Shown one piece after another: positions 3,066-46,374 of a stretch of 64,000 bases of DNA (position 1 is the stretch's first letter; the number at the start of each line of letters is the position of its first letter). Made by a program: the position numbers and the translations under genes. Origin of the DNA: a virus; IMG/VR virus record IMGVR_UViG_3300008448_012223. One strand, written 5' to 3'. A model generated the notes under the pieces. It was not told where the DNA came from and made no database searches. It worked only from the letters and a program-made list of their open reading frames with translations.

Positions 3066-3272
3066 CTAATCGAATTGAAACAACCAGGGATTCCAGGTTA
3101 GTTCAGTATTATCATCTAACGTAACAACCACTCTGTTCTTATGGCCAGCGTAGCGGTGAGAAAGATTACCCTTCGTGTTGTAACTATAACCCGCTGACCT
3201 AGGGTACGTTGATTGATATGCTATATTAGTAACTACCTTATTATTAATCTCATCGCCTAGCCTGATGTGCAT
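3066..3272 (-). CDS. small hypothetical protein
   Basis: ORF in operon context only. Confidence 0.4.
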   Translation of the reverse strand: MHIRLGDEINNKVVTNIAYQSTYPRSAGYSYNTKGNLSHRYAGHKNRVVVTLDDNTELTWNPWLFQFD

Positions 3273-4231
3273 GGGAAGCCTGTCTGGAAGTAATCGATTA
3301 GTGAAGTAGAGTCGAATGACGTACGGTTATAACTACGACTAGTAGGAGCATACTGCTGCTTAACTGCATCAATATACATAGTAAACTGGAAGTCATCGCC
3401 CATATAGAAGCGGGCCCACCCCTCATCAGTGAATAAACGTCTGAGCTCTAACTGTTCGATAGCCAGGTTATCAAAGGAGAGATTACACTTACCTATAAGA
3501 GAGGGTAGGGAACGCCGCCACTGCGCTATGCCTGCATCTACCTCAGGGCTATGATAATCTATACCGAAGCCGAAGTTCTTATAGCCTAGTACGAGTACCT
3601 TACTGGTTACAGCGCTGAGGCTAACCAACTCATCGATTATACTGACGGGATGGATACCAGCGATGATGTGATACACGATGTTATCTGAGAGACGCAGTAC
3701 TGGTATCAGACTGCTATAGTTACTACTAGTGATTGAGATACCGAGGCCCCGCACTAACTCCTGACTTACTATGTCCTCTATTAGAGTAGCGTAGCGATGT
3801 AGATGACCCTGGTTAACAGTAATGTTAGCTATAAGCCCGCGGGCCTTAAGTTCTACTAGGAAGCCCACTATATCAGGATGAGATAGTGGGTTACCCCCTC
3901 CATTTGCTAACTCGACCCCAGCAGGTATATCACTAAGGACATCGAGTAACCGTGTTAGGTCAGCGTGTTTACCACTACGAGTAGAACTCTCATGGCAGTA
4001 CCTACATCCCATATCACAGTAGTCAGTGATCTTAATATCTATAGAGCAGGGATAGGCAGGGCGGGCCCCAACCACACTTGTAGTACGAACTAGGGTACCA
4101 TCAGCATATAGAGTACACTCATAATCACCATTAATATAATGCGCTAACGCTATCGCTTCATTAAACCTATTCATAGTCATAGAATGACGGATAATCATCA
4201 GTATTAATCCCCATGATCTCGCAAGCTTCAA
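3257..4231 (-). CDS. radical SAM protein
   Basis: CDMGCRYC (CxxxCxxC) and GGGNPL motif. Confidence 0.85.
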   Translation of the reverse strand: MKLARSWGLILMIIRHSMTMNRFNEAIALAHYINGDYECTLYADGTLVRTTSVVGARPAYPCSIDIKITDYCDMGCRYCHESSTRSGKHADLTRLLDVLSDIPAGVELANGGGNPLSHPDIVGFLVELKARGLIANITVNQGHLHRYATLIEDIVSQELVRGLGISITSSNYSSLIPVLRLSDNIVYHIIAGIHPVSIIDELVSLSAVTSKVLVLGYKNFGFGIDYHSPEVDAGIAQWRRSLPSLIGKCNLSFDNLAIEQLELRRLFTDEGWARFYMGDDFQFTMYIDAVKQQYAPTSRSYNRTSFDSTSLIDYFQTGFPCTSG

Positions 4232-5274: not shown

Positions 5275-6075
5275 CTATCGTTTATCTGCGGCGAAGGCGC
5301 GTTGTGTTAACTTAGCCATATCCCTAATAACATCCCATCCTGCTTCACCGTATTGAGATACAGCATATTGCTCAACAGCGAGTAATAGATCAGCTAACTC
5401 ACATTGTCTCAATAACGAATTAGTGGCCTCGCGGCACTCGAGCAGCTCCTCGTATATCTTATCCAACGTATTAACAGAATATTTAGGGATAGGGCTAGAG
5501 TGATAGCCGGGCCGGAAGGAGTCATTAACTGCTATACTAAAGCGGGGCTCAGCTATACCAGTGCCATAATACCACCAGTGATCATCATAAGAGCGCTTAC
5601 CATAGGAGCCCAGCTCTAGATTCAATGGAGTATAGATTATATCCGTCTCATTGGCACAATGCACGTACTTGAGATTATGTGGATTAATGTAATGTAGCAT
5701 CCACTGGTAGGCATCAGTACAGATAGTATTTACAGTCATACCAGGCATACCCTTGTACACAAATAACTCTAGCTTCATAAAGTAAGGGTAGCTATAATTG
5801 TCATTATCCAGTGGACGAAAGCACGGCGTAATAGCTTGCAGTGCGTCACCTGCCTGATAATGTCCATTTATCGCATTATAGATGAAGGTCTGTTCTGCGC
5901 TACCTACCAGCACAAAAGTGTCGTAACAGCTATAGGGGGCCTGACTGTTAGGCTCTGGTGAGGTTATAGAGCCAATTCTGCGGGGCACGACCCATTTTAG
6001 ATCGACTACTCTATAGCCTTTTTGTTTGTAGTATTCCTGCGCCTCTGTTAGATAGCGATAATTAATAGTAAACAT
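5275..6075 (-). CDS. class II aminoacyl-tRNA-synthetase-like domain with a short C-terminal MazG-like helical domain
   Basis: TPCFR...YFMKLEL (motif 2-like), GTGIAEPR (motif 3-like), KIYEELLE...ELADLL (MazG-like). Confidence 0.55.
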   Translation of the reverse strand: MFTINYRYLTEAQEYYKQKGYRVVDLKWVVPRRIGSITSPEPNSQAPYSCYDTFVLVGSAEQTFIYNAINGHYQAGDALQAITPCFRPLDNDNYSYPYFMKLELFVYKGMPGMTVNTICTDAYQWMLHYINPHNLKYVHCANETDIIYTPLNLELGSYGKRSYDDHWWYYGTGIAEPRFSIAVNDSFRPGYHSSPIPKYSVNTLDKIYEELLECREATNSLLRQCELADLLLAVEQYAVSQYGEAGWDVIRDMAKLTQRAFAADKR

Positions 6076-6932: not shown

Positions 6933-7422
6933 TGAATAATCTCCTGTTAATATCAGATGATAGGAAAGCCTCTAACCAGACAGGGCGGGGCTCTATAAGA
7001 TAACAGGCCCGCGCTGCGATAAGAGGATGATAGAAGTAGGGTAAGAACTCTAGCTGAGCTAGAGCCTCTATATGCTGAGGTGTAGCTATACCCCTATGAT
7101 CTAGTATACCCAGGGTAGGGTAGCGCTCGTGATATATATTTAGGTTATAGTCATGCAGATACTCAGTAGTATCTAGACAGTACCAGGCAGCGCCAGAGCG
7201 GGGCCGCCCCATATCAGGTAGGTAGCCTGTTATAATCGGCGGGCTTTCATTATCCTCACGTAGATACTCTATGGCACGCCGATACATACGCCACTCCTGG
7301 GCCCAGCCCGACTGTAGTGTTATAGTAACAGCACTATAGCGGCCATCAGCGTAACGCCCTACATAATAGGGGTATATCATACAATCGCGAGCAGGTATAC
7401 TCACGTGATAATTAGTCATCAC
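6922..7422 (-). CDS. hypothetical protein
   Basis: ORF overlapping the primase stop codon. Confidence 0.55.
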   Translation of the reverse strand: MMTNYHVSIPARDCMIYPYYVGRYADGRYSAVTITLQSGWAQEWRMYRRAIEYLREDNESPPIITGYLPDMGRPRSGAAWYCLDTTEYLHDYNLNIYHERYPTLGILDHRGIATPQHIEALAQLEFLPYFYHPLIAARACYLIEPRPVWLEAFLSSDINRRLFNVC

Positions 7423-8639
7423 GATCCGAATAGTAGAGAGGCATATTCAAGGGGCCCTAATTGATTATCTACATAAGGAGCCAGTAGCCCTAAGGGGGAA
7501 TGAGTAGCAGTCAATACCCGCAATATATCTACGTGATGACTAATGTCGGGCCCCCATTGAGCTAGTAAATCATCTACGAATAATATGCGGTTAGCATTGA
7601 TAGTATCAGCAGCATTAACGCGAGGCTCTGCTACCAACCACTCATTAATATCTTTATAATCAGCAACCATATACGTCATAAGCTCAGCTAATGGTAAGTT
7701 AACCTGTAGCTGAACTAGTTGAGGTATGATACGCACCCAGCTCTTATATACACCGGCATGAGTAGGATGATCATCGCTATACTTATCTGAGTCGAATATA
7801 AATGTGATACGACGGAAGGGCTTGAACTTACTGGTGTGACATAATAGATACTCCAGACCCAATAGTCCCACTACAGGTAAACCACGACCTATTAGTGATG
7901 TGGCATCAGGCGGGCCCTCAACTATATATAGCTCGCGAGCTGGGTGCTTACTATACTCCTTAAGACAATGTTCTAGATAGAGATAGCGCTTACTATTAAT
8001 AGCGGCCCGCGTATCCTTATAGCGGGGGGCCCTCTCACTACTACCTATATAGCGACCAACCATATGGACTAGATGGCCTCGTGTATCTCGTATAGGGAAT
8101 ATAATGCGTTCCCTATAGTAATCCTCGCCGTCCTCCTTAATCAGACCCTCGCGGGCTAATGCCTCATGATCTATATCGAATTGACGTAGACCACTAGGAG
8201 GAGCATACCCTATACCAATGCTACGAGCTAGATCGAGGGACCAGCCCCGCCGCAGTATATAATCCTGAGCAGCAGGCGTAGTATCAAAATAATAATGATA
8301 GGCCTCTAGCGCGCTCTCTAGTACTATACTGCGAGCATCCATAACCTCGCGGGCCTGACGTATACCAGCGCGGGCCTCTAACTGCTGCATAGCCCCAGCA
8401 TAATCAAGCTTAGTATGCCAGCGCCAGGCATTGACTAGACCCATACCTGCGTTCAACTCACAACTAGTCCTCCAGCACTTCATATAGTGCGGATACACGC
8501 TCAGCTTACCGCGGCCCCCACAAGCAGGGCAATCATTAGTACCATGCCGTAGATTTAGTAGCTCTGGTATAGTTAGCCGCTCCATTATCAGTTGCTCATT
8601 CTCTCTCGTCACCGCTCTCCGTATATTGGATGAATGCAC
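7419..8639 (-). CDS. dnaG: DnaG-like DNA primase
   Basis: CPACGG zinc-binding motif, RIIFPIRD..G..V..VGR, Toprim YIVEGPPDA and FDSD. Confidence 0.85.
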   Translation of the reverse strand: MHSSNIRRAVTRENEQLIMERLTIPELLNLRHGTNDCPACGGRGKLSVYPHYMKCWRTSCELNAGMGLVNAWRWHTKLDYAGAMQQLEARAGIRQAREVMDARSIVLESALEAYHYYFDTTPAAQDYILRRGWSLDLARSIGIGYAPPSGLRQFDIDHEALAREGLIKEDGEDYYRERIIFPIRDTRGHLVHMVGRYIGSSERAPRYKDTRAAINSKRYLYLEHCLKEYSKHPARELYIVEGPPDATSLIGRGLPVVGLLGLEYLLCHTSKFKPFRRITFIFDSDKYSDDHPTHAGVYKSWVRIIPQLVQLQVNLPLAELMTYMVADYKDINEWLVAEPRVNAADTINANRILFVDDLLAQWGPDISHHVDILRVLTATHSPLGLLAPYVDNQLGPLEYASLLFGS

Positions 8640-9475: not shown

Positions 9476-9918
9476 AGTGTCACCTCGGTTTGTATTTCAG
9501 TTTCGATAAATTCATAAATATCAATCATAATTCGTGTTCCTTTTTTACGCCATAGATTTAATTCTCCATGTTTAGCAGTCCCACTTTTCTTGAATGAGAT
9601 TTTACTGTTTTTTCTATCATTTATCCATACAAAAAAACTTCCTTCCCAATCTAAATTAGAAATAGTAGATCGACCTTCTATGTAATTTCTAAAATCGCTA
9701 GGTGAACCGTCACTACTATAAAAGTTGTTACTATTGATACTTATATCTATTTGTATTCCATTTATAGAATTAAGAATAGGGCGATACCCGTAAATCATGT
9801 CTTGAGTTCTGCCTAAAGATGTAAATGACCACTTTAGCTCTGGGTAAGTTTTTTGGCAGAAATTGAATATTTTTTGGGCTGTTTCTTGTTTGTTCATTAT
9901 ATGAAGATCAGAATCCAT
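9472..9918 (-). CDS. hypothetical protein in AT-rich insert
   Basis: ORF; composition differs from the flanking core genes. Confidence 0.55.
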   Translation of the reverse strand: MDSDLHIMNKQETAQKIFNFCQKTYPELKWSFTSLGRTQDMIYGYRPILNSINGIQIDISINSNNFYSSDGSPSDFRNYIEGRSTISNLDWEGSFFVWINDRKNSKISFKKSGTAKHGELNLWRKKGTRIMIDIYEFIETEIQTEVTL

Positions 9919-10029
9919 CTTAAGCGAAGCTACACCTAAACGACTTTGTATTATGCAAAAAATTCCAGTCTGTAATAAAACAGGGCAAGTCTGAAAGAAT
10001 TACAATCATAAAACTTGCGTATTAAGTTG

Positions 10030-13000
10030 TCTGTTCCAATGTAGGGTTCAGGCATAAACATAGAGGCCTTCAGCTTATTGTGCAGAGATCAATCACTACA
10101 ATTAATAGTCTTCATCGAAATAATTGTATAGCATTCTATAGTAAAATTGATCTATAAGAGTAATAAGTATAAAGGCCTTGACCTTATTGTTGAGAGTCCA
10201 GTCGAAAATCCAATAGTTAGAAATAGTCTTCATTCAAACAAACCCTTATGATTCAATCTAGAGTAAAACGAACCGACATGATTCCTACTCATTAAATAAG
10301 ACCGGGTTACTAAATAACTTGCAGGCTCAATAAGCATAGAGGCCTTAAGCTTATTGTGTAGAGACCAATCATTAATCATAATCATCTTCATTGAAACTAT
10401 CTTCATTGAAATAACCGTCTTTATGTATAATGTTATACTTACTCATTCTCATCTAGAATGTGTTAGACAATACACTTACCAGTCTATAGTAAAACTGGTC
10501 GACAGAGGTAATAAGTATAGAGGCCTTCAGCTTATTGTGCAGAATCCAAATATTACAATTTAGTCTTCATCGAAATAATTGTATAGCAGTCTATAGTAAA
10601 ATTGATCTATAAAAGTAATAAGTATAGAGGCCTTGAGCTTATTGTCGAGAGTCCAGTGGTAAAGCAAACTCAATTTGAAATAATCATTATTACACAGAAC
10701 CCAATTATTATATAAAATCCAATAAGTAGAAATTCTCTTCATAAAAACAAACTCTTATAATTCAATCTAGAGTAAAACGAACCGACATAATACCTGCCCA
10801 TTAAATAAGACTCGGTTACTAAGTAATTTGCCCCAACGGAAAACTCAATAAGCATAGAGGCCTCAAGCTTATTGTGCAAAGACCAATAATCATTAATCAT
10901 CTTCATCTAAATAACCGTCCTCATATTCATCGAATTGCCCATCCTCAAGATAATAATCGCCCTCATCTAGAATATCATCCTTATCTAGGATGTTTTCTAA
11001 CATATTTACCAGTCTACAGTAAAACCGGAAGATAGAGCCGCAACACTCGCTTAGTTTAGGAGTATAAATCTCGAGACCCATCTCTTCATAATAATGAAAC
11101 AAGCGCAAGGCATTGAGATAATCATTATTCAAAATCCAAGGTAACAGACAATCGTTAGAAATATTCTTCATTGAAGTAATCGCTCTCATCTAGAGCGTTA
11201 TATAATCTAGAGTAAAACAAACCGATGTAGTACCTGCTTATTAAATAAAACCTAGGCACTAAGCCGGTTGCCCTAGCGAAAGGCTTAATAAGCATAGAGG
11301 CTCTAAGGTTATTGTGTAGAGTCCACTCGTCACATATAATAGTCTTCATAAAAACATACTCCTAGCCAGTTACCCAATCTGAAGTAAAACAAAGATGTCG
11401 AAGCAGACACCCAAAAAATACTGTAATGCATAGCAAGGTTAAAATAATTATGATTATAATACTTTCTTACATTTATATCAGTGGAAGGCTCTCTACTAGA
11501 TATAGATGCCATAAGCTTATTATTAAGCATAGGCCAATAATCAATCATCTTCATCGAAATAACCACCCTCATCTAGAACGTTATATAACATATTTGCCAG
11601 TCTATGATAAAACCTGGCGGGCCCTCTATATACAATAAAGATGAAGCTATAGTATAAACTTTCACCATTTGCTAATTTTAGCTTGTCAGTAATAGTAAGT
11701 ACACCCCCTTTATTGCTATGAATATAATGACAAAACAGGTTGTTACAATTAACCATCTTCATTGAAGTAGTCATCCTCATTTAGAATATCATTATCATCT
11801 AGAGCGTTATATATAAAAGCCACTAGTCTATAGTAAAACTCGCCGGTAGGGTTAATATGTGTGTGGCCCTTCAACTTATCACACACATTCCAGTAGTAAA
11901 ATAAGGTAATGTCATACAAACAATCGTTAGAAATATTCTTTATTGAAGTAATCACTCTCATCTAGAGCGTTATATATAAAAACCACTAGTCTATAGTAAA
12001 ACAAGTTGATAGCGTTAATAGGTATAGAGGCTTTATGCTTATTATACACATTCCAATTGTACAGAATCAAGTTATAAAACAAAGCAAGCCCGAGATCATT
12101 ATCAATCATCTTCATAGAGTGTATACTTATATAGAATATTGTATATCACAGCTGTTAGTTTATAGTAAAACCAGTCGATAGAGCACCTGCTAAATTTAGG
12201 AATATGAGTCTCGATGGTCACATCCTCATAATAATAAAACAAGTAATTAAGCCTGTTACAACTAATCCATCTCATTGAAATAACCGTCCTCATCTAGAAT
12301 GCTATATAACACATCTTCTAATCTATGATGAAACAGATTGATAGAACCATGGAACCTGTCTAATTCAGGTATATAAGTTATAAGCCACATACCCTCATAA
12401 CATATTAATAATCCGTGATGGTCAGCTGGCAGATCAGTAATAGATATAGGTATATTCAACTTATTACGTGGGGCTCAATTGTTACAATTAATTATCTTCA
12501 TCGAAATAACCGTTCTCATCTAGAATGTTATATAACTCATCTCCTATATAAAACAGGTTGATAGAACCATGGTACCTGAATTAGTCAGGTACAGGAGTTG
12601 TAAAGACACATACCCTCATACAATAAAACAGGGCGTCACAATTAACCATCTTCATTGAAATAATCATCCTCATCTAGAATGTTATATAACTCATCTCCTA
12701 ATCTATGATAAAACAGGTTGATAGAACCATGGAACCTGTCTAATTCAGGTATATAAGTTATAAGCCATATACCCTCATGACAATAAAACGGGGCGTCACA
12801 ATTAATCACCTTCATCGAAATAATCGTCCTCATCTAGAATGCTATATAAATGTTCTAATCTATGATAAAACAGGTTGATAGAGCCAGAGAACTTACTTAA
12901 TTCAAGAGTATAGGTATCGAGATCCATGTTCTCATAATAAAACAAGGCAATATAATAATCGAGCTTAACTAATAAGTCACTTATCTGAATGTGCTCGTCA

Positions 13001-16000
13001 CAGTTAATCACTCTCATTGAAGTAATCGTCCTCTCTATTAAGAAAGCTATATATTACAAGTTCTACTAATCTATAATAAAAAAGTCTTCCAGGACTATAA
13101 GCAAAATACAATTTGATTAATAATTTACGTAGGTCAACGGGCAGATCAGTAATAGGTATATTCAAGTTATTACGCGGAGCCCAGTCATTACAATTAATCA
13201 TCTTCATCGAAATAATCCCCCTCCCCTAGAAAGTCATATAACAAACATGCTAGTTTATAATAAAACAAGTCGATAGGAACATGTAACTTGTCCAATTCAG
13301 GGATATAGGCCCCGAGACCCATGCTTTCATGGTAGTAACGATAGAACCATAGATAGTATAGATTATCACCATTTGGTAAAATCGGCGGGTCAATATATAT
13401 ATTCAGTTTACTACTATGAGGCGCCCAATCGTTACAATTAATCATCTTCATAGAAATAATGGTAGGTTATAGTAGGCTCAGATAGGTTATGGTAAACCCA
13501 AGCGACTCCTCTGACATAAAAGTTATCGTATAAACTATTATGGTTTGCTATCAACGGGTTAGTAATAGGTGTAGATACACCTAACGTATTACGTGGGGCC
13601 CAGTCATTACAGTTAATTATCTTCATATAATTAATTGTCCTCATCTAGAATGTTATACAACACTACTCCCGCTAGTCTATGGTAAAACCTGGCGGGCCCC
13701 CCAGCGTTATAAGTATGAAAGTTATAGTTATAGAAACTGTAGTATAAACTATCACTGTCTACTAAAATCGACGGGTCAGTAATATATTTATTCAGTTTAC
13801 TACGTGAAGGCCAACCGTTAATCATATTCATAAAAATATAACAATCTATGGTAAAACCAAGCAGGCCCTCCACCATGATAAAGATAGAAGTTATAGAATA
13901 ACTTATTATTATCTGCTATTGGAAGAACAATAGTAGGTACAGGTGCATTCATACGGAGCCCATTTAAATTACGCGGAGTCCAACCATTACAATCAATCTT
14001 CTTCATATAATTAATTGTCCTCATCTAGAATGTTATATGATGCTACTCTTTCCAGTATATAATAAAACAGCACCCCATCATAAAAGCTATAGTATAAATT
14101 ATCAACGCTCGCTAGAGGCGGATTAGTAATAGGTATGTATGAAGTCCACGCATGCGGGTCTCTTCTATTACGAGGAGCCCAATTGTCAGAATTAATCTTC
14201 TTCATAGAAATAATGGTAGGGCCACTATAGTATAAAACATAGCAAGCCCCCCATCATCATTATAAAGATAAAAGCTATAGTATAAATTATCAACGCTCAC
14301 TAGAGGTGGATTAGTGATAGTGAGTACGTATGGAGCCACATGCGGGTCTCTTCTATTACGAGGAACCCAATTGTCAGAATTAATCTTCTTCATCGAAATA
14401 ATCATTCTCATATAGAACGTTATATAATACTATCCCCGACAGTCTATAGTAAAGTATAGCAAGTCCTCCAGAATTATAAAGATAGAAGCTATAGTATAAA
14501 TTATTGATATTTGCTACTGGCGGGGCAGTGATAGGTACAGGTACATTCCACTCATACGGGGCCCAGCAATTTGGATTAATTGTTTTCATAGAGATAGTTA
14601 TCCTGACCTAAAATATCAATATACCAGTCTATGTTAAAGCGCGCTGATAAGAGCGCAGTTTATAGGCCAGTCTATAGTAAAATTGGAAGATAGAGCCACA
14701 GCACTTGTTTAATTCAGGAGTATAAATCTCGAGACCCAGCTCTTCATAATAATAAAACAAGTACAAAGCATTGAAATAATCATTATTCAAAATCCAATTG
14801 TTACAACTAATCGCTCTCATCGAAATAATCATCCTCATATAGAATATCGTATATCACAGTTCTTAGTCTATAGTAAAACCCGCCGGTAGAGATAATAAGT
14901 ATACGGGCCTTTAGCTTATTCTTGATAGTCCAGTTGTAAAACAAAGCAAGTTTGAAAACATTACAATTAATCATCTTCATAGAATATATATTTATCTACT
15001 ATGTGTATATACAGTCTATAGTAAAATCGGTCGACAGCATAAAACCTTAATTCAGGAGTATAGGTGAAACCCGCACGCTCACAATAATAAAAAAAGTAAT
15101 TAAGCTTGTTACAACTAATCGCTCTCATTGAAGTAATTGCCCCCCAAGCTTAAGGCCTCATTCAGAAAGCCATATATCACAAATTCTCCCAGTCTATAAT
15201 AAAACCAGGCGAGTCTCCCAGGACTATAAGCAAAATACAATTTGCTTAATAATACCTGTAGGTCAACAGGCGGGTCAGTAATAGGTATAGGTATATTCAA
15301 CTGATTACACGGGGCCCAATTATTACAACTAATCATCTTCATCGAAATAATCATCCCCATATAGAATGTCGTATATCACAGCTGTTAGTTTATAGTGAAG
15401 CCGGTCGATAGAGCACCTGCTAAATTCAGGAATATGACTCTCGATGGTCACATCCTCATAATAAAAAAACAAGTACTTAAGCTTATTACAACTAATCGCT
15501 CTCATTGAAGTAATCACCCCCTATTCAGAAAGCCGTATATCCCAAATTCTTCCATTCTATAATAAAACCAGGCGACTTCTCGACTATAAGCAAAATACAC
15601 CTGTAGGTCAACAGGCGGGTCAGTAATAGGTATAGATATCATAGGTAGATTTAACTTATGACGTGGGGTCCAATTGTTACAATTAATTATCTTCATCGAA
15701 ATAATCGTCCTCATCTAGAGTGTTATAATAAAACACGCTTACCAGTCTATAATAAAACCGGTCGATAGTTACAAGACCTGTGTTATCGTAATAATAAGTT
15801 CTAATAGGCCTAGGTATATTCAACTTATTACGTGGGGCCCATTTGTCACTATCATCTATCTTCATAGAAATTGTCCTTAGCTAACAATGTCAGTCTATAA
15901 TAAAACAACTTGATAGAAGCATAAAACTTATTTAATTCAGGTAGATAGACCCAGAGACCCACACTCATACTTTCGTAGTGGTAATGATAAAAGCTATAGT

Positions 16001-17600
16001 ATAAACTACCACTGTTTGCTAAAACCGGCGGATCAGCAGCAGGTATATTCAACTTATTAAGTGAAGGCCAGTCGTTAATAATCTTCATAGAAATAATTCC
16101 CCTCCTCTAGAAAGTCATATAACAAAAAATACTACCCCACGACAGACTATAGTAAAATATAGCAAGTCCTTTAGAATTATAAAGATAGAAGCTATAGTAT
16201 AAATTATTGATATTTGCTACTGGCGGAGCGGTGATAAATACAGGTAAACCCCATTTATACAGAGCCCAGCAATTTGGATTAATTATTTTCATTGAGATAG
16301 TTATCCTCACCTAAAATATCAATGTACCAGTCTATGTTAGAGCGCTGATAAAGCAGCAATTTACAATAAAACCAGTCGACAGAAACATATAACCTGTCTA
16401 ATTCAAGAGTATAGGCCCCAATTATACTTTCATAGAACCATGTATAATATAAATTATCGCCGTTTGCTAGAATCGCTGGGTCAGTAATAGATTTAGATAT
16501 AGACATATCTGGACCCCAATTACTACTAAGCCAACCGTTACAATTAATAATCTTCATAGAGATAATCATCCTCATCTAATGATAGTTTACGGTAAAACCA
16601 AGCAAGCCCTTGATTATTATAAGTATGAAACTTATAGTATAAACTATAACCATCTGTTATTAGAGGATCAGTAATAGGTATAAGTTCACCCCAATATGGA
16701 GCCCATCTAGTATTGCGAAGAGCCCAACCATTATAATTAATCATCTTCATAGAAGTAATTGTCCTCATCTAGAATGTTATATACATTTCCTGCTAGTCTA
16801 TCGTAAAACTTGGCGGGCCCCCCAGCATTATAAACGTAGAAGCTATAATATAAAATATCACTGTTTGTTAAAATTGGCAGGTTAGTAATAGGTATAGGTG
16901 CGTCCCATAAATAATGATTATGGGGTGCCCAACCATTACAATTAATCTTCTTCATAGAGATAATCATTCTCATCTGGCGATAGTTTACGATAAAACCAAG
17001 CAAGCCCTTCATTATTATAAGTATGAAACTTATAGTATAAACTATAACCACTTGTTATCAGAGGATTAGTAATAGGTACAAGTTCACCCCAATATGGAGC
17101 CCATCTAGTATTACGAGGAGCCCAACCATTAGAATTAATAACCTTCATAGAAATAGTCACCCTCATATAGAATATTATATACATTTCCTGCCAGTCTATC
17201 GTAAAACTTGGAGGGCCCCCCAACATTATAACCGTAGAAGCTATAGTATACAGTATCACCGTTTGCTAAAATTGGCGGGTTAGTAATAGGTATAGGCGCG
17301 TCCCATTCATAATACGGCGCCCCATAATCGTTATGGGGCGCCCAATAGTTTGGATTAATCTTTTTCAACAAATGTTTCCTTTTGGTACTATTAATTATCT
17401 TTATAGAAATTGTCCTTAGCGAACAGTGTCAGTATATAATAAAACATCCCAGCATTATAAACGTAGAACCTATAGTATAAAGTATCACCGTTTGCTATTG
17501 GCGGGTTAGTAATAGGTATAGGTGCGTCCCATAGATAATCATTATGAGGCGCCCCATAATGATTATGGGGCGCCCAATAATTTGTACTAATCTCTTTCAT
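10030..17600 (-). repeat. tandem array of about 40 diverged ~190-250 bp coding units
   Basis: 32 overlapping minus-strand ORFs of 60 aa or more in the track plus shorter units; most share M(K/R)xI(N/S)C..W, FYYRL and LDEDDYF(D/N)ED motifs and a conserved DNA junction. Confidence 0.9.
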
Positions 17601-17615
17601 CAGGTGCCTCCTCTT

Positions 17616-18002
17616 TTACTGGACGTAAAACGACTTTTTCTTATAAGCAACCACCTTTAAATACACCTCTAGCAAAGCCTCAATGAGAGACTCTTGTCGA
17701 GAGACAAAACAACGCGAAGTCTCGTAAATATTGGGGTTCACACTAACTGTCACAGTATAACTATTAGGTAATCGTTGAATAACCCAACCATAACCAGAGC
17801 TATCTAGACGCATTTGGAAAAAATAGATCAACTTAGCAAGCGACCCCCGATCTAACAAAAAGGGATCAGGATCAGAGGTAGAGATAGAAATACAATCACC
17901 CCAAGATAGTTGGATAAAAAAGGTATTCCGAAAAGTACCCCACCCATACCGACAAATGTGAGGCTCAGACTTGACCCAATCATGCAAAAATTCAGTAAGC
18001 AT
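17616..18002 (-). CDS. hypothetical protein
   Basis: ORF immediately upstream of the array. Confidence 0.55.
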   Translation of the reverse strand: MLTEFLHDWVKSEPHICRYGWGTFRNTFFIQLSWGDCISISTSDPDPFLLDRGSLAKLIYFFQMRLDSSGYGWVIQRLPNSYTVTVSVNPNIYETSRCFVSRQESLIEALLEVYLKVVAYKKKSFYVQ

Positions 18003-18090
18003 TTATACCCTCTGTATAGACGACAATATGTTGTAATAAGAATAGACTAACAAGAATACTCGTTAAGATACTTTATATCTAACTAATTAA

Positions 18091-18417
18091 TTAAAATTGT
18101 TGAATAATAACGCCCCCCTCAAATTTAATTACTGTTGTTTTGTCTTCTAGATAAGTAATAGCAGATGACTCTACATCATCCTCATCCTCATCATCTTCTG
18201 GTATAAAGCCGTAATGTTCGGCCGCTTCTAGGGCGCTAGAGTATTCTGAATACTCGCACCGGATAGCGACTCTATCAAATTCGATAGATTCATCAAGGCT
18301 ATCCTCTAAATCTTCTAGATACCCAACTAAAGCCTCAGCGCCCGACCATGACCAATCAGCATTATCATCCTCTTTGAGTAGCTTGATAGCTTCATCGGTG
18401 CTTATATTTTGATGCAT
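18091..18417 (-). CDS. acidic hypothetical phage protein
   Basis: ORF with upstream AGGGA. Confidence 0.55.
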   Translation of the reverse strand: MHQNISTDEAIKLLKEDDNADWSWSGAEALVGYLEDLEDSLDESIEFDRVAIRCEYSEYSSALEAAEHYGFIPEDDEDEDDVESSAITYLEDKTTVIKFEGGVIIQQF

Positions 18418-18568: not shown

Positions 18569-18853
18569 TCACCCATTGTTATCAAATAGATTTCTGTAGG
18601 CCTCGTATACGGCATCAGGTGCCTCCTCGTCATTGTATTGTTGAGCCGACTTGAATGTAGATAAGATGCTCAATAGATTAGGGCGGTAGTTAGGGATAAT
18701 ACAATAACCACCATTAATCCATCTAATACACGCGAGACGACGGGTGCCATGAAACCAGCATAAGATCTCATCGCCAAGGGCCGTATGAGATTGATATGGT
18801 TCGCGGAAGTCAGATATACGCCCCCGCAAGTATTTAAGTAAATCTAACATCAT
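18569..18853 (-). CDS. hypothetical protein
   Basis: ORF overlapping the helicase stop codon. Confidence 0.5.
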   Translation of the reverse strand: MMLDLLKYLRGRISDFREPYQSHTALGDEILCWFHGTRRLACIRWINGGYCIIPNYRPNLLSILSTFKSAQQYNDEEAPDAVYEAYRNLFDNNG

Positions 18854-20028
18854 GATTTAGTACCTAACCGATTATAGAATTTAAGGATAGAGGGCTCTAT
18901 ATAGCAACTATCACAGAAGGCGGATCGTGTACCTATCAGGCGGAGGCCGCTATAGTGACGTACACGACTAAGAATAGTATAGAGGCCCCCGCTGAGCCAA
19001 CGTAAATTACTGAGACGAGCCTGTACGTTATTAAGCGTGAGCCCCTGACTACGATGGACAGTAAGGGCATAGCCCAGTCTAACGGGTAAGTAGTGGCAGC
19101 GGCCCAATAGTTTGTTAGTGCCGAGCTCTTTATTATCTCGTGTCACGTATTCAATGATAGTCTCCTGACCGGTACGTTCTACTGTCACCAGTATAGTATT
19201 AGTCATGAGCTCCTTGACTATGGCGATATCGCCATTAGCGTATGTAGGTAGTCTATTACGAAGTAGAATAACGCGCGCGCCTTTCCTTAGCTCTACTGAT
19301 TCAGGTATTTGGCCCCACTCAGGAGCGGTCCTCCCCCCCTTCGGTATAACGTAATTCTTAGTATAGAGGCGACTAGGCCCTTCTAGTTGTGCTAGGTGCA
19401 GGGCGTTATATCTATCTACACTATCATTAGTAGGCAGGATAGTAGTACCTGCGTAGTTATCTTCGAGCTGATTGACAAACTCTACATTATCTATGAACCA
19501 ATCTACTGCTTCGTGAGGCCGCCCTTCTCTTACGCTAGTCAGCGCCTGTATAAAGCCGGGGTCATTCTGGCGCCTGACCTCTCGTAAGTACTGTATATCG
19601 AAGCTCTGTAGGCAGTCTGTTTGATAGACTGGCGTGCTAGTGACCTTTTTATCTGGTACTAGTGGTAACTGACAGAAGTCTCCCACGAGTAGGAGATTCA
19701 TATTTATGTTACTCTTCTCCATTACGTGATGGATAATAGTTAGTTGAGGGCCATGTAACATACTGATCTCGTCTATGACTAGAGTATCAAATGCATTAGA
19801 TATAGCCTGTAGCTGAGTGGTCAGCTTTCCACTAGAAGCGGAGCGTAATAGACTAGTAGTGTCGAAGAACTGGAGGGCCGCGTGAATAGTAGTACCACCT
19901 GCATTAATAGCGCTCACGCCGGTACTACTAGTGATGAGGGCCTTACTCAAACTCTGTATGTATGTTGTCTTACCACTCCCTGCTGGACCCAGCAGCATCT
20001 GATAGGGGCCGTTGAACGTTATCTGCAT
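18850..20028 (-). CDS. PIF1/RecD-like SF1B helicase
   Basis: GPAGSGKTT, IDEISML, GDFCQLP, RRQND, YALTVHRSQGLTL. Confidence 0.9.
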   Translation of the reverse strand: MQITFNGPYQMLLGPAGSGKTTYIQSLSKALITSSTGVSAINAGGTTIHAALQFFDTTSLLRSASSGKLTTQLQAISNAFDTLVIDEISMLHGPQLTIIHHVMEKSNINMNLLLVGDFCQLPLVPDKKVTSTPVYQTDCLQSFDIQYLREVRRQNDPGFIQALTSVREGRPHEAVDWFIDNVEFVNQLEDNYAGTTILPTNDSVDRYNALHLAQLEGPSRLYTKNYVIPKGGRTAPEWGQIPESVELRKGARVILLRNRLPTYANGDIAIVKELMTNTILVTVERTGQETIIEYVTRDNKELGTNKLLGRCHYLPVRLGYALTVHRSQGLTLNNVQARLSNLRWLSGGLYTILSRVRHYSGLRLIGTRSAFCDSCYIEPSILKFYNRLGTKS

Positions 20029-22836: not shown

Positions 22837-22919
22837 TGGGTTAAGCTGGATTTGCACCAGCGTGGAATTAAATCTACAGATTTACAGTCTGTCGCCTTCG
22901 ACTACTCGGCCACTAACCC
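22837..22919 (-). tRNA. tRNA-Tyr(GTA), CCA not encoded
   Basis: GGGTTAG/TTAACCC acceptor stem, ACAGA-CTGTAAA-TCTGT anticodon arm, long variable region, GCTGG-TGCAAAT-CCAGC T-arm. Confidence 0.9.
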
Positions 22920-43389: not shown

Positions 43390-46374
43390 TTAACTAGCGC
43401 AGGAATGGCACTCATTCTTCTCAGTTACCTTATCCTGCCATATACTCCGCACGTAATATAATGTCTTGAGGCCCTCACGCCACGCCTGCAGATAGACATC
43501 ATTTAGATCCTTAGCAGTGATTACGGAGTCGAGGCCATAGGCGTGTTCATTGAAGTTGAATAACAACTCAGTGCTAAGACCAGTATCTATCCATTTCTGA
43601 ATAGTTGCTGCAGCAGAGACTACGACACTGGGATGAGTATGGCGGCTCTCCTGATAAAAGTGAAATGCCTCCTTGATATAGAGCGGGACTATGGTATTAA
43701 TACCAGCCCCATTCTTATCAATGGTAAGGCGAGAGAAGACAGGTAAGAAGGAGGCCGTGGTGCCCTGTACCAACGAGGTGCTGGAGTTAGGAGCAGTAGC
43801 CAGGATGTGAGAATTACGAATACCCGATACGATTATACGCTCCATGAGGGCGTACCATCTCTCGGGGTCGGCGCTATTATCGCTGACCCATTCCTTATCG
43901 CGACCACCCAGGATAAGGCCCTTACTCCACTCACTACCAGGGAATGCAGGGTAGGCCCCCCGCTCCTCTGCTAGTTCTACACTAGCCTGAGTAGTATAGA
44001 AGCAGATGTCTTCGAATAGTTTCTCTATGACATCGAGATCCTGATACTTAAGGTGTCTAATAGCTAACCAGTCAGCTAGTCCCATGACACCTACGCCTAT
44101 GGTACGATAGCGGTTCACATGAGCGCGGGCCTCAGGAGTAGGGCTAGTAGTGAGATCACATGCGGCATCTAATAAGCGAACAGCCATACGGCTAACATCA
44201 GCCATCTCATCGTCAACAATACGAGGTAATACTAACGATAGAAGTATACAGCAGTGTGAGTAGCCGCTATTAAATAAACTATATGACTCGACGCAATTGC
44301 CTGTAAGCACTCCATTGAACATGAGCAGGTTACGCTTAGGTTCGTGGGCGCAATACGTATTATCGTGACGACCAGTGAGCTCTACCTCCTTGATAGTTAT
44401 GTAATTAGTATTGTCATACTTAGGTTTAATAGCTATCCACTGAAGGCGATTAGTTCGTAGGCCTAGTTGGTATAACTGATATACTCCGTACCTATCAATT
44501 AATAAGCAGAACTTCTCCTGACGACGCCGAAGCCCTGCCTTATACCGGAGGAAAACCTCAGAGTCCACTCCAAGCGTCTGTAGCATGAGCCGCACTTGTA
44601 ATAGGAAGGGCTTACTGGTATGCGTTATTCTGAAGGTTTGGAAGCTATTATAAGTACCATCAGAATCAAGCAGCCTAGCCAACCACTCTAATCGGGTCTG
44701 AATAGTATAACCATTAATGGGAACAGTTAACTCATTAGGGAGGTCTACATCGCTATCAGAAGACACAAATGGCAGGTCGGACTTAATGAGCTTATCACCT
44801 ATATCGAGATCGCGGGCCTCGACAATATCTATCCCATTACGACGCTGTACGTGAAACTTATGGTAGTAGGTACAGTCAAGAGTTTCTCCATTACTGAAGT
44901 GGACTCGTAGGAGAGGTTGATTCTCCCCTGTCTGGCGTACCGTTACCTCACTCCACTCACTACCGTTCCAAGCGTTGACTACCTGCCCTGCTAGGGTAGC
45001 GATAGGTAGGTGGCCCCGGTCAGTCATAAGAAGTGTCTCAGGGGCTACGCATAGATTTACTCCACCGATGATACCCTCATGCTTATTAGGATTAAACGCA
45101 TTAATGCGGTCTTTAAAAGCCACGTAAGGAGTACCTGTCTCAAGTAGGAGCATCAGCATCTTCTTCCATATAGCCTTAGCGCTGACCTTCTTAACTACGT
45201 CGAGCGGAGGAGCGGAGGAGTTGATATAGGCCTCGATGACGTGATAGGCATCAGTAAATTCATCGCCGTACATATCGGCTAATTGATATCCAAATACATT
45301 CTTGATCTCAGTAGGGCACACTAGGTACCAGTCCTTATCTAGAATTACACGACGCATGAACTCATCAGAGATAATGAATTGCAGCAGGATATCACGAGCC
45401 TTCGTATGCTCACTACCAGCATCACCCCGCAGGTCCATGTACTCAAGGAGGTCAGCATGCCATACGTCTATACCTACGGTACAGGCTCCTGCGCGTACAC
45501 CACGTTGATTAGTAGCGACGATGGTAGCATTGATAATCTTAATCCAAGGGCATACACCACCACTGGCACCCTTCTTCTTACGAATGCGACTACCACGGGC
45601 CCGCACCTTACTAATGCGTACGCCCACTCCACCGCCATTAGCACTCATCGCTGCTAGCTGAGAGATATTATCGAAGATACTCTCGCGACTATCATCGATA
45701 TCGATAATATGACAACTACTGAGGCTACCATCGGCCTGACGCAGGTTACTCATAAGAGGAGTGGCCAGGCTGATCTTACCGAGGCTGAGTAGGTCATAGG
45801 TCTTATGAGCAAAGGTCATGCGCTCGTGGGCGGGCTCCAGCATACTGAGGAGTAGTGCCTGTGTTAGCCACATCTCCTGTAGTAACTCACCCTCTAGTAG
45901 ATAACGCGCTGTGAGTAGATCAGCGCCGCTTATATCAAAGCGCATATCGCGCTCTGGGTCTATCCAGGTGCCGGCTTCAGCAATGTCATCAGCACTATAC
46001 GTGTCTAAGAACTTCTTTATTAGGTCTCCTTCATAGAGGCCCTCAGACCTCAGGTACTCGAAGGCCACTGGATAATTACCATAGAGATAGCCGCGGCGGG
46101 CCTTAACCTTACGCCGCCAATCCCACATACGAAGACGACCACTGACCTTCAGCCAATCAGGATAATGCAAATCGGCTAATTCAGCTGCTGATCTAATCAG
46201 ACCATTCTGTATTGCTTCTGTAGTGGTATCATCATTGAAGCGACGACTAAGTCGCCGAGATAACTTATCGGGGTCTACATCTAGGCCCTCGCAGGCCCAG
46301 TTAATTACCTCGATAGCGCGATTGGCATCATAGGGGGTACGAGTACCATCTGTGTGTATAACGTTGATTTGCAT
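43390..46374 (-). CDS. nrdA: class Ia ribonucleotide reductase alpha subunit containing an intein
   Basis: SLATP, LSSC, NGGGVG, NL|C.E, TAPNSSTS. Confidence 0.92.
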   Translation of the reverse strand: MQINVIHTDGTRTPYDANRAIEVINWACEGLDVDPDKLSRRLSRRFNDDTTTEAIQNGLIRSAAELADLHYPDWLKVSGRLRMWDWRRKVKARRGYLYGNYPVAFEYLRSEGLYEGDLIKKFLDTYSADDIAEAGTWIDPERDMRFDISGADLLTARYLLEGELLQEMWLTQALLLSMLEPAHERMTFAHKTYDLLSLGKISLATPLMSNLRQADGSLSSCHIIDIDDSRESIFDNISQLAAMSANGGGVGVRISKVRARGSRIRKKKGASGGVCPWIKIINATIVATNQRGVRAGACTVGIDVWHADLLEYMDLRGDAGSEHTKARDILLQFIISDEFMRRVILDKDWYLVCPTEIKNVFGYQLADMYGDEFTDAYHVIEAYINSSAPPLDVVKKVSAKAIWKKMLMLLLETGTPYVAFKDRINAFNPNKHEGIIGGVNLCVAPETLLMTDRGHLPIATLAGQVVNAWNGSEWSEVTVRQTGENQPLLRVHFSNGETLDCTYYHKFHVQRRNGIDIVEARDLDIGDKLIKSDLPFVSSDSDVDLPNELTVPINGYTIQTRLEWLARLLDSDGTYNSFQTFRITHTSKPFLLQVRLMLQTLGVDSEVFLRYKAGLRRRQEKFCLLIDRYGVYQLYQLGLRTNRLQWIAIKPKYDNTNYITIKEVELTGRHDNTYCAHEPKRNLLMFNGVLTGNCVESYSLFNSGYSHCCILLSLVLPRIVDDEMADVSRMAVRLLDAACDLTTSPTPEARAHVNRYRTIGVGVMGLADWLAIRHLKYQDLDVIEKLFEDICFYTTQASVELAEERGAYPAFPGSEWSKGLILGGRDKEWVSDNSADPERWYALMERIIVSGIRNSHILATAPNSSTSLVQGTTASFLPVFSRLTIDKNGAGINTIVPLYIKEAFHFYQESRHTHPSVVVSAAATIQKWIDTGLSTELLFNFNEHAYGLDSVITAKDLNDVYLQAWREGLKTLYYVRSIWQDKVTEKNECHSCAS
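44296..45051 (-). mobile_element. intein (252 aa) at the RNR active-site NL/C junction, with a partial LAGLIDADG region
   Basis: Starts CVAPET, ends LTGN followed by C; block B TLDCTYYHKF; WLARLLDSDG. Confidence 0.9.

Follow-up and report, generated by a model that had tools for sequence, protein, structure and literature searches.

How should one read a 45-nucleotide (nt) segment that seems to end one peptide and begin the next, and that returns in similar form along a tandem array of small genes? The question is raised by positions 15675–15719 (minus strand) of the IMG/VR virus record IMGVR_UViG_3300008448_012223, the whole 64,000-nt stretch of which we refer to as the window. An earlier note, made from the letters and their open reading frames (ORFs), had described this segment as dual-coding and had suggested that its recurrence would enforce translational coupling down the array and supply homology for recombination, making each unit “plug-and-play”. 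We assign a probability of roughly 0.6 to the following reading as a whole: the segment is a boundary (henceforth joint) between tandem genes of the phrog_4393 family, it codes in two frames over 14 nt, it probably belongs to a translationally coupled chain, and it is a place of recombination between units.

On the minus strand, the letters from 15719 to 15675 match the quotation in the earlier note exactly. ORF 15683–15865 has the C-terminal end ...NTLDEDDYFDEDN followed by its stop, ORF 15514–15714 has the N-terminus MRTIISMKIINCN in the +1 frame relative to the upstream ORF, and the two together confirm that the 45 nt close one peptide and open the next in the +1 frame. The GAGG, the two in-frame ATGs and the TCTAGA reported within the segment are all present. 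Counted from the second ATG (ATG2), the overlap between the two genes measures 14 nt; counted from the first (ATG1), it measures 32 nt. The array and the parts of this joint are as follows (all on the minus strand; SD: Shine-Dalgarno; aa: amino acids):

9951–17600, minus strand: tandem array of about 39 units of 120–280 nt, head to tail, 7.6 kb
15675–15719, minus strand: the joint as reported, with the last 11 codons and the stop of the upstream unit and the first codons of the downstream unit, the latter in the +1 frame
15683–15865, minus strand: upstream unit gene, 60 aa, phrog_4393 (E = 1.3e-14), with the acidic tail LDEDDYFDEDN before its stop
15514–15696, minus strand: downstream unit gene from the conserved start (MKIINCN..., 60 aa), with an optional longer form from 15714
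15719–15714, minus strand: TCTAGA
15712–15714, minus strand: ATG1, an optional upstream in-frame ATG that adds MRTIIS
15708–15712, minus strand: GAGGA, SD-like, 11 nt before ATG2 and formed from the Glu-Asp codons of the tail
15694–15696, minus strand: ATG2, the conserved start, 11 nt ahead of the upstream stop
15683–15685, minus strand: TAA stop of the upstream unit, within downstream codons 4–5 (Ile-Asn)

The window is part of a Ma-LMM01-like Microcystis myophage genome (genus Fukuivirus), since its ribonucleotide reductase (nrdA) is 93% identical to the homologues in MaMV-DC, MaMV-DH01 and relatives of Ma-LMM01. Syntenic arrays lie between helicase and primase genes in Ma-LMM01 (gp137–gp157), MaMV-DC and MaMV-DL01/DH01, with 21–35 copies in relatives and about 39 in the window, and exact matching of a degenerate 21-nt motif for the joint picked up the array in ten more IMG/VR contigs. 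The array units are coding: 32 out of 37 run without a stop from the conserved ATG as far as the following joint, where 0.15 would be expected at the stop rates of the two remaining frames of that strand (6% and 15% per codon, vs. 1.2% in frame). Their proteins are 55–95 aa long, tyrosine-rich and acidic-tailed, and are built alike: they begin with MKxIN(C)NxW, continue through a variable core to the motif FYYRL and end in an acidic tail (e.g., YNILDEDDYFDEDD); six units match the phrog_4393 profile (E from 9e-20 to 4e-4).

To describe the joints we numbered positions from the A of ATG2 and brought together 292 joints, drawn from the window, from three isolates and from ten environmental arrays, out of which we took a non-redundant set of 161 joints differing at a minimum of 8 out of 80 positions. 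The claim that the design recurs and that frames rotate along the array held: 38 joints in the window match a 30-mer core with at most 11 mismatches, and the frame advances by +1 at most of them. An overlap of exactly 14 nt, counted from ATG2, is found at 24 of about 37 gene boundaries in the window, and 19 of the 38 joints carry the upstream ATG 18 nt before ATG2 (i.e., a 32-nt overlap). A weight matrix of positions −12 to +20 was specific to the array (elsewhere in the 64 kb it gave one weak match, and none on the opposite strand), with the same specificity in four related phages, and an information-content profile put the conserved segment at about 50 nt per unit, from −33 to +20. Within the non-redundant set, ATG2 (read as MKxIN) is present in 155 of 161 joints, and in 138 the stop of the upstream gene falls at +11 to +13, which gives the 14-nt overlap.

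Evidence on dual coding comes from 62 independent orthologous joint pairs, each from different arrays, aligned without gaps for 200 or more of 220 nt and 80–99.6% identical. We compared nonsynonymous (pN) and synonymous (pS) differences per site in the frame of the upstream acidic tail (tail frame), the frame of the downstream N-terminus (head frame) and the third frame:

−19 to −1 (between the ATGs), pN/pS: tail frame 0.34, head frame 0.83, third frame 0.66
+14 to +47, pN/pS: tail frame 0.79, head frame 0.35, third frame 0.81
−1 to +14 (overlap), pS: tail frame 0.011 (1.0 difference, 90 sites), head frame 0.026 (2.5 differences, 98 sites)
Single-coding flanks, pS: tail frame 0.12, head frame 0.11

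These patterns indicate that only the tail codes between the ATGs, where its pS is not depressed (0.12), and that only the head codes past the stop. The near-vanished synonymous differences of the overlap are the classical mark of two constrained frames. Dual coding is thus supported over four codons and a stop, and not over the 32–35 nt that the earlier note had proposed: its suggested alignment of all joints supports two frames inside the 14-nt overlap and the tail frame alone upstream of it.

Codon choice agrees with the substitution pattern. At +1, +4, +7 and +10, where the tail frame has its wobble positions, the base is fixed to what the head frame requires, such that T occupies +1 in all 159 of 159 Asp, Tyr or Asn codons (61–75% in the background). 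Conversely, the head-frame wobble T at +11 supplies the stop, and the Ile codon in question is ATT in 143 out of 146 cases (41% in the background); the head-frame Asn, Asp or Ser at +12 corresponds to TAA, TGA or TAG in the tail frame, meaning that the residue varies and the stop is never lost. Control wobbles at −11 and −5 vary freely, while the one at −8 is mildly biased (GAT in 51/64 vs. 61% in the background), and the tail Glu codon that forms part of the SD-like motif is GAG in 78/83 cases (vs. 46%).

How might such a joint work? In the mechanism that we propose, the acidic tail would double as the initiation region of the next gene (a purine-rich GAGGA plus ATG), a ribosome terminating at the stop would have the next start within its footprint and could reinitiate there, and the units would probably be produced as a chain that begins with unit 1 and its strong SD. 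That SD, AGAGGAGG, is the only strong one in the window array:

17607–17614, minus strand: strong SD AGAGGAGG, 6 nt ahead of the ATG (17600) of the first unit, duplex −12 kcal/mol

In 138/161 joints the start precedes the stop by 11 nt on the same strand, which makes the overlap longer than the usual 4 or 1 nt; this layout fits published work on termination-reinitiation, and the geometry is compatible with a reinitiation chain. Cyanobacteria are reported to use SD motifs more where genes overlap than at leading genes (PMC6728339); in this phage, about half of the joints place an SD-like GAGGA or AGGA at a spacing of 11–12 nt. Overall, we consider translational coupling at the joints plausible. 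The term “enforce” is too strong, because an SD-like motif is present at 55–60% of joints (64/161 lack one) and because the region is AU-rich and unstructured, with no conserved or occluding structure found at the start.

The proposal that the joints serve recombination was supported by whole-unit indels, by the clustering of block edges and by the shuffling of unit families across 14 arrays. When the arrays of Ma-LMM01, MaMV-DL01 and MaMV-DC were aligned with one another (92.5% identity over the aligned parts), they differed by indels of 175, 181, 226, 252, 528, 568 and 983 nt, most of which were in register with the ATG (end offsets +4/+4, −7/−7, +46/+49 and −36/−37), with two out of register (+13/−34 and −57/−18). 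We also compared 14 array pairs for blocks of at least 93% identity and examined their unique edges. Block starts fell within −53 to −5 in 15 of 20 cases (nominal p = 3e-6) and block ends within −5 to +45 in 14 of 28 (p = 0.007); taken together, 37 of 48 edges fell within −53 to +45, compared with 50% expected (p = 1e-4), and about a quarter lay inside units. The joint is thus the preferred but not the sole place of recombination. Written as strings of unit-core families, the 14 arrays contain conserved runs that are re-ordered, duplicated or lost, and 21 of 43 families have more than one kind of successor; the family labels are too coarse (due to indels and loose clusters) to map the crossover point. 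One environmental array (L008) also has the two unit families that meet at 15675–15719 as neighbours; the arrays of Ma-LMM01, MaMV-DL01 and MaMV-DC have other units before the downstream family and no unit assigned to the upstream one. From phage to phage, whole units come and go, are duplicated and change their order, and the block edges lie at this boundary; we propose that the conserved boundary provides the homology for unequal or ectopic recombination.

Several observations weigh against this combined reading. The matrix used to find joints itself rewards an ATG, and joints share descent, so all p-values are nominal. Fixed wobbles are also found outside any overlap (−26, −23, −20, +17 and +20), and the C at −2 is non-random: upstream, AAC is used at −28 in 38/40 cases, ATT at −25 in 56/57 and CTA at −22 in 61/95 (vs. 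15%); downstream, TGT is used at +15 in 80/80 and AAC is favoured at +18; and TTC encodes the Phe that directly precedes the start in 114/130 cases (vs. 23% in unit bodies), with or without ATG1. For this reason two coding frames are not the whole cause of conservation, and some nucleotide-level force, or joint haplotypes spread by recombination, acts over roughly −33 to +20 in addition to them. Joints without the overlap have an SD-like motif no more often than joints with it (15/34 vs. 82/127). Tight coupling has been reported at overlaps of 4 and 1 nt, with longer overlaps rare and a steep fall with distance (PMC10666635). Finally, no structural variants or junction-bounded deletions were found in reads or contigs from 2017 and 2021; the raw DNA run yielded a single read. 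Initiation without an SD is also common in cyanobacteria, so each ATG could act independently.

Two candidate explanations linked to these observations were rejected. A hairpin pairing the C at −2 with the G of the ATG gave no RNAalifold consensus (mean z vs. shuffles +0.2); the same C (e.g., 15698) toggles between orthologues in 12 of 73 cases. Compensation by an SD where the overlap is lost fails overall, as the counts above (15/34 vs. 82/127) indicate; four joints with an early upstream stop do carry very strong G-rich SDs (−12 to −14 kcal/mol), which is anecdotal.

The rival that survives best is passive overlap, in which each unit is initiated alone, from an AU-rich open leader that may or may not have GAGGA, and the 14-nt overlap is merely the inherited edge of a founding duplication, retained since neither the tail and head residues nor the start and stop can be given up, with no coupling. 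We regard this as possible, with the odds against it. In its favour, no conserved hairpin was found, folding being no stabler than in shuffled sequences; 55–60% of joints do have an SD-like motif; only 17 of 45 non-array genes have one, so that SD-independent initiation is normal in this phage; and the promoter-like motifs inside several units (see below) would give transcripts beginning in mid-array. An inherited edge is harder to reconcile with a stop held exactly at +11, with the T that completes it and with Asn, Asp and Ser changes that always preserve it. It also sits poorly with the distance of the SD-like motif from the ATG, which is 3–9 nt at the other genes of the phage, and with the strong SDs at the few joints where the upstream stop comes early.

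A further rival, which we consider improbable, holds that the long form is real, i.e., that translation starts at ATG1 and that some 32 nt are dual-coding. The earlier note had given overlaps of about 14 or 32–35 nt: the former is the conserved geometry, whereas the latter needs ATG1, which is missing from 96 of 161 joints (present in 65), with 78 lacking any upstream in-frame ATG. ATG1 arises where a tail Asp or Tyr codon (GAT or TAT) is followed by a codon beginning with G, and the tail codon at −19 is indeed GAT in 46/46 cases when Asp and TAT in 26/27 when Tyr, which creates ATG1 and speaks for this rival. Likewise, ATG1 is stable between orthologues (17 pairs have it in both members, 44 in neither and 1 differs), and two units in which ATG2 is changed to ATA retain it. 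However, the head frame is under no constraint between the ATGs (0.83 vs. 0.34 for the tail), the wobbles at −11 and −5 (second positions of codons in the long reading) vary freely with only −8 mildly biased, and GeneMark on MaMV-DH01 chose the starts that give the 14-nt overlap (the MaMV-DL01 record took the longest ORFs). GAGG is found in 51 of 65 joints with ATG1 and in 16 of 96 without, and both travel as one block. The optional ATG1, with its MRxIIS reading, comes as a by-product of the Asp-Glu codons (GAT-GAG) that the acidic tail uses; ATG1 may act as a spare start.

That there are no separate genes at all, the array being a non-coding repeat (e.g., replication iterons) or a polyprotein read by programmed +1 frameshifts, is very improbable: an AT-rich array in the replication module, unit cores without a frame-specific pN/pS signal and a frame shift in the same direction at every joint would fit, but the units are open, head and tail are under frame-specific constraint, a polyprotein would leave the conserved ATG superfluous, neither a slippery motif nor a stimulatory structure turned up, and no family member exceeds 97 aa among 1.84 billion representative proteins.

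Returning to the boundary between coupled genes as our preferred reading, we note that it resembles known systems in parts. It shares with the ATGA and TGATG termination-reinitiation pairs (Huber et al. 2019, PMC6728339; 2023, PMC10666635) an out-of-frame stop-start arrangement on the same strand and an SD-like motif in the upstream 3′ end. Where those pairs overlap by 4 or 1 nt, the genes of the array overlap by 14 nt, and they do so serially, in about 38 near-identical copies. In the coat and lysis genes of phage fr, as cited in PMC10666635, the downstream start likewise lies tens of nt ahead of the stop; this 34-nt overlap is the basis of a two-way post-termination scanning model, and, according to the summary given there, of the start codons added to the pair those nearest the stop were always used. 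Phage fr differs in being an RNA phage with a single pair, compared with a serial array in a DNA cyanophage. The array side of the design resembles the lpl cluster of S. aureus (Tsuru and Kobayashi 2008, PMC2568036) and the esaG immunity arrays of its type VII secretion system (T7SS; PMC9484751), which also consist of tandem paralogues with a conserved recombination segment and show shuffling, copy-number change and mosaic arrays between strains. In lpl, however, the conserved segment lies mid-ORF and the exchanged unit spans two genes, whereas here the segment straddles the boundary and the exchanged unit is the core of one ORF; the genes here are also far smaller and belong to a phage. The joint therefore combines two known kinds, a stop-start overlap and a recombining cluster of tandem paralogues, and what is new relative to them is the 14-nt overlap length, the serial repetition and the placing of the recombination segment at a gene boundary. 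In the literature searched (which did not include the 2008 Ma-LMM01 genome paper) we found no description of the array or the joint. The arrays of Ma-LMM01, MaMV-DC (ORF133–143) and MaMV-DL01 (156L–180L) are of the same family, in the same place and with the same joint, and are annotated only as “hypothetical protein” with inconsistent starts; the conserved ATG would give a single start rule for these public Fukuivirus records.

If the preferred reading is true, the joint is a compact natural design in which the acidic tail is the next initiation site, copied some 20–40 times per genome. It would then be a test bed for how far and how often a ribosome reinitiates backwards after termination, for how start and stop signals constrain overlapping frames, and for how phages shuffle fast-evolving microproteins via a conserved boundary. 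A bolder extension, which we hold to be doubtful, treats the joint as a “reset” cassette with a stop, an SD-like purine run and a start in about 30 nt, such that a ribosome loaded at the strong SD of the first unit would be relayed through up to about 38 reinitiations and a single message would yield a whole microprotein library, while the same 50 nt or so would serve as splice point for exchanging, duplicating and dropping its members in an arms race against Microcystis defences. The defence repertoire of Microcystis is very large. No longer chain of coupled cistrons would then be known, and small proteins would have a natural system of cassette shuffling. The joint does not reveal the role of the roughly 40 array proteins, which is the main point of interest left.

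With regard to transcription, no terminators were found within the array, and a promoter located in the joint was rejected because matches to TTTATA-16-TATAAT sit in unit bodies. These promoter-like matches, in the LYYSFY part of several units, are as follows:

17454–17481, 17014–17041, 16827–16854 and 16616–16643, minus strand: TTTATA-16-TATAAT in the LYYSFY part of units
16176–16203, 14473–14500 and 14259–14286, minus strand: the same motif, likewise in the LYYSFY part

The same motif is listed as a middle promoter for Ma-LMM01 gp150 and gp156 (PMC5780444, Table S3), where gp137–gp157 all belong to middle class B5. Their tabulated values start at zero (three genes: close to zero) in the first two columns listed and stand at about 7.3–9.8 in the last two, and their levels resemble those of the neighbours gp135 and gp158–159. 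In two metatranscriptome libraries contigs span the window array at 100% identity, which may reflect DNA carry-over and so does not prove transcription. Across 9900–18100, which takes in the entire array, contigs from the runs of three studies (2017 and 2021) show no difference from the window. The phage lineage is widespread and its array has been stable over years; unit turnover is slow on the 2017–2021 scale.

The array proteins themselves are unusual in composition. The array has a GC content of 33–36%, compared with 42–50% in most other 2-kb bins of the window, and its proteins contain 11.8% Tyr, compared with 4.6% in other window ORFs. Gln is nearly absent from them (0.4% vs. 3.3%), and the phage encodes a tRNA-Tyr (GTA) at 22837–22919 (minus strand). 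Searching a profile of 36 units against the 1.84 billion representative proteins returned only 72 matches, all of 46–97 aa and, where the source was named, all “hypothetical”, on contigs of up to 187 kb. Pfam and ESM Atlas searches of units gave no match, and two AlphaFold runs on units reached a pLDDT of 57.6 and 49.6. In orthologues across phages, unit cores had a coding-frame pN/pS of 0.62–0.77, no better than the other frames and far above that of the neighbouring helicase (0.12). Because the cores are open and yet their pN/pS is not frame-specific, the frame is held open while the residues are nearly free; as a guess, such variable cores would fit a diversifying library, perhaps directed against host defences. 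Some units are broken by stops 5–24 codons after a perfect joint (12475–12655, 10553–10570 and 10089–10115, minus strand), meaning that the array tolerates pseudogenes.

Nearly all long ORFs of the window are on the minus strand, and they include a DnaG-type primase, two helicases, a family A polymerase, ThyX, a tail-collar protein and a class I ribonucleotide reductase with an intein. Two of them flank the array:

18850–20028, minus strand: RecD/PIF1-like helicase, on one flank
7419–8639, minus strand: primase, on the other flank

The intein of the nrdA large subunit (43390–46374, minus strand) has a LAGLIDADG domain and seems to be absent from the sequenced isolates, whose homologues cover only 78% of the protein. 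A few kb past the primase lie genes for a radical SAM protein and a PD-(D/E)XK nuclease (3257–4231, 1352–2494 and 5275–6075, all on the minus strand); relatives annotate the counterpart of 5275–6075 as seryl- or histidyl-tRNA-synthetase-like, and the window protein has no Pfam match. A link between the radical SAM enzyme and the aromatic-rich peptides of the array would be pure speculation. In Ma-LMM01, an insertion element that the window lacks, of transposase plus resolvase type (gp135–gp136; L001 9046–10804), stands at the downstream end of the array.

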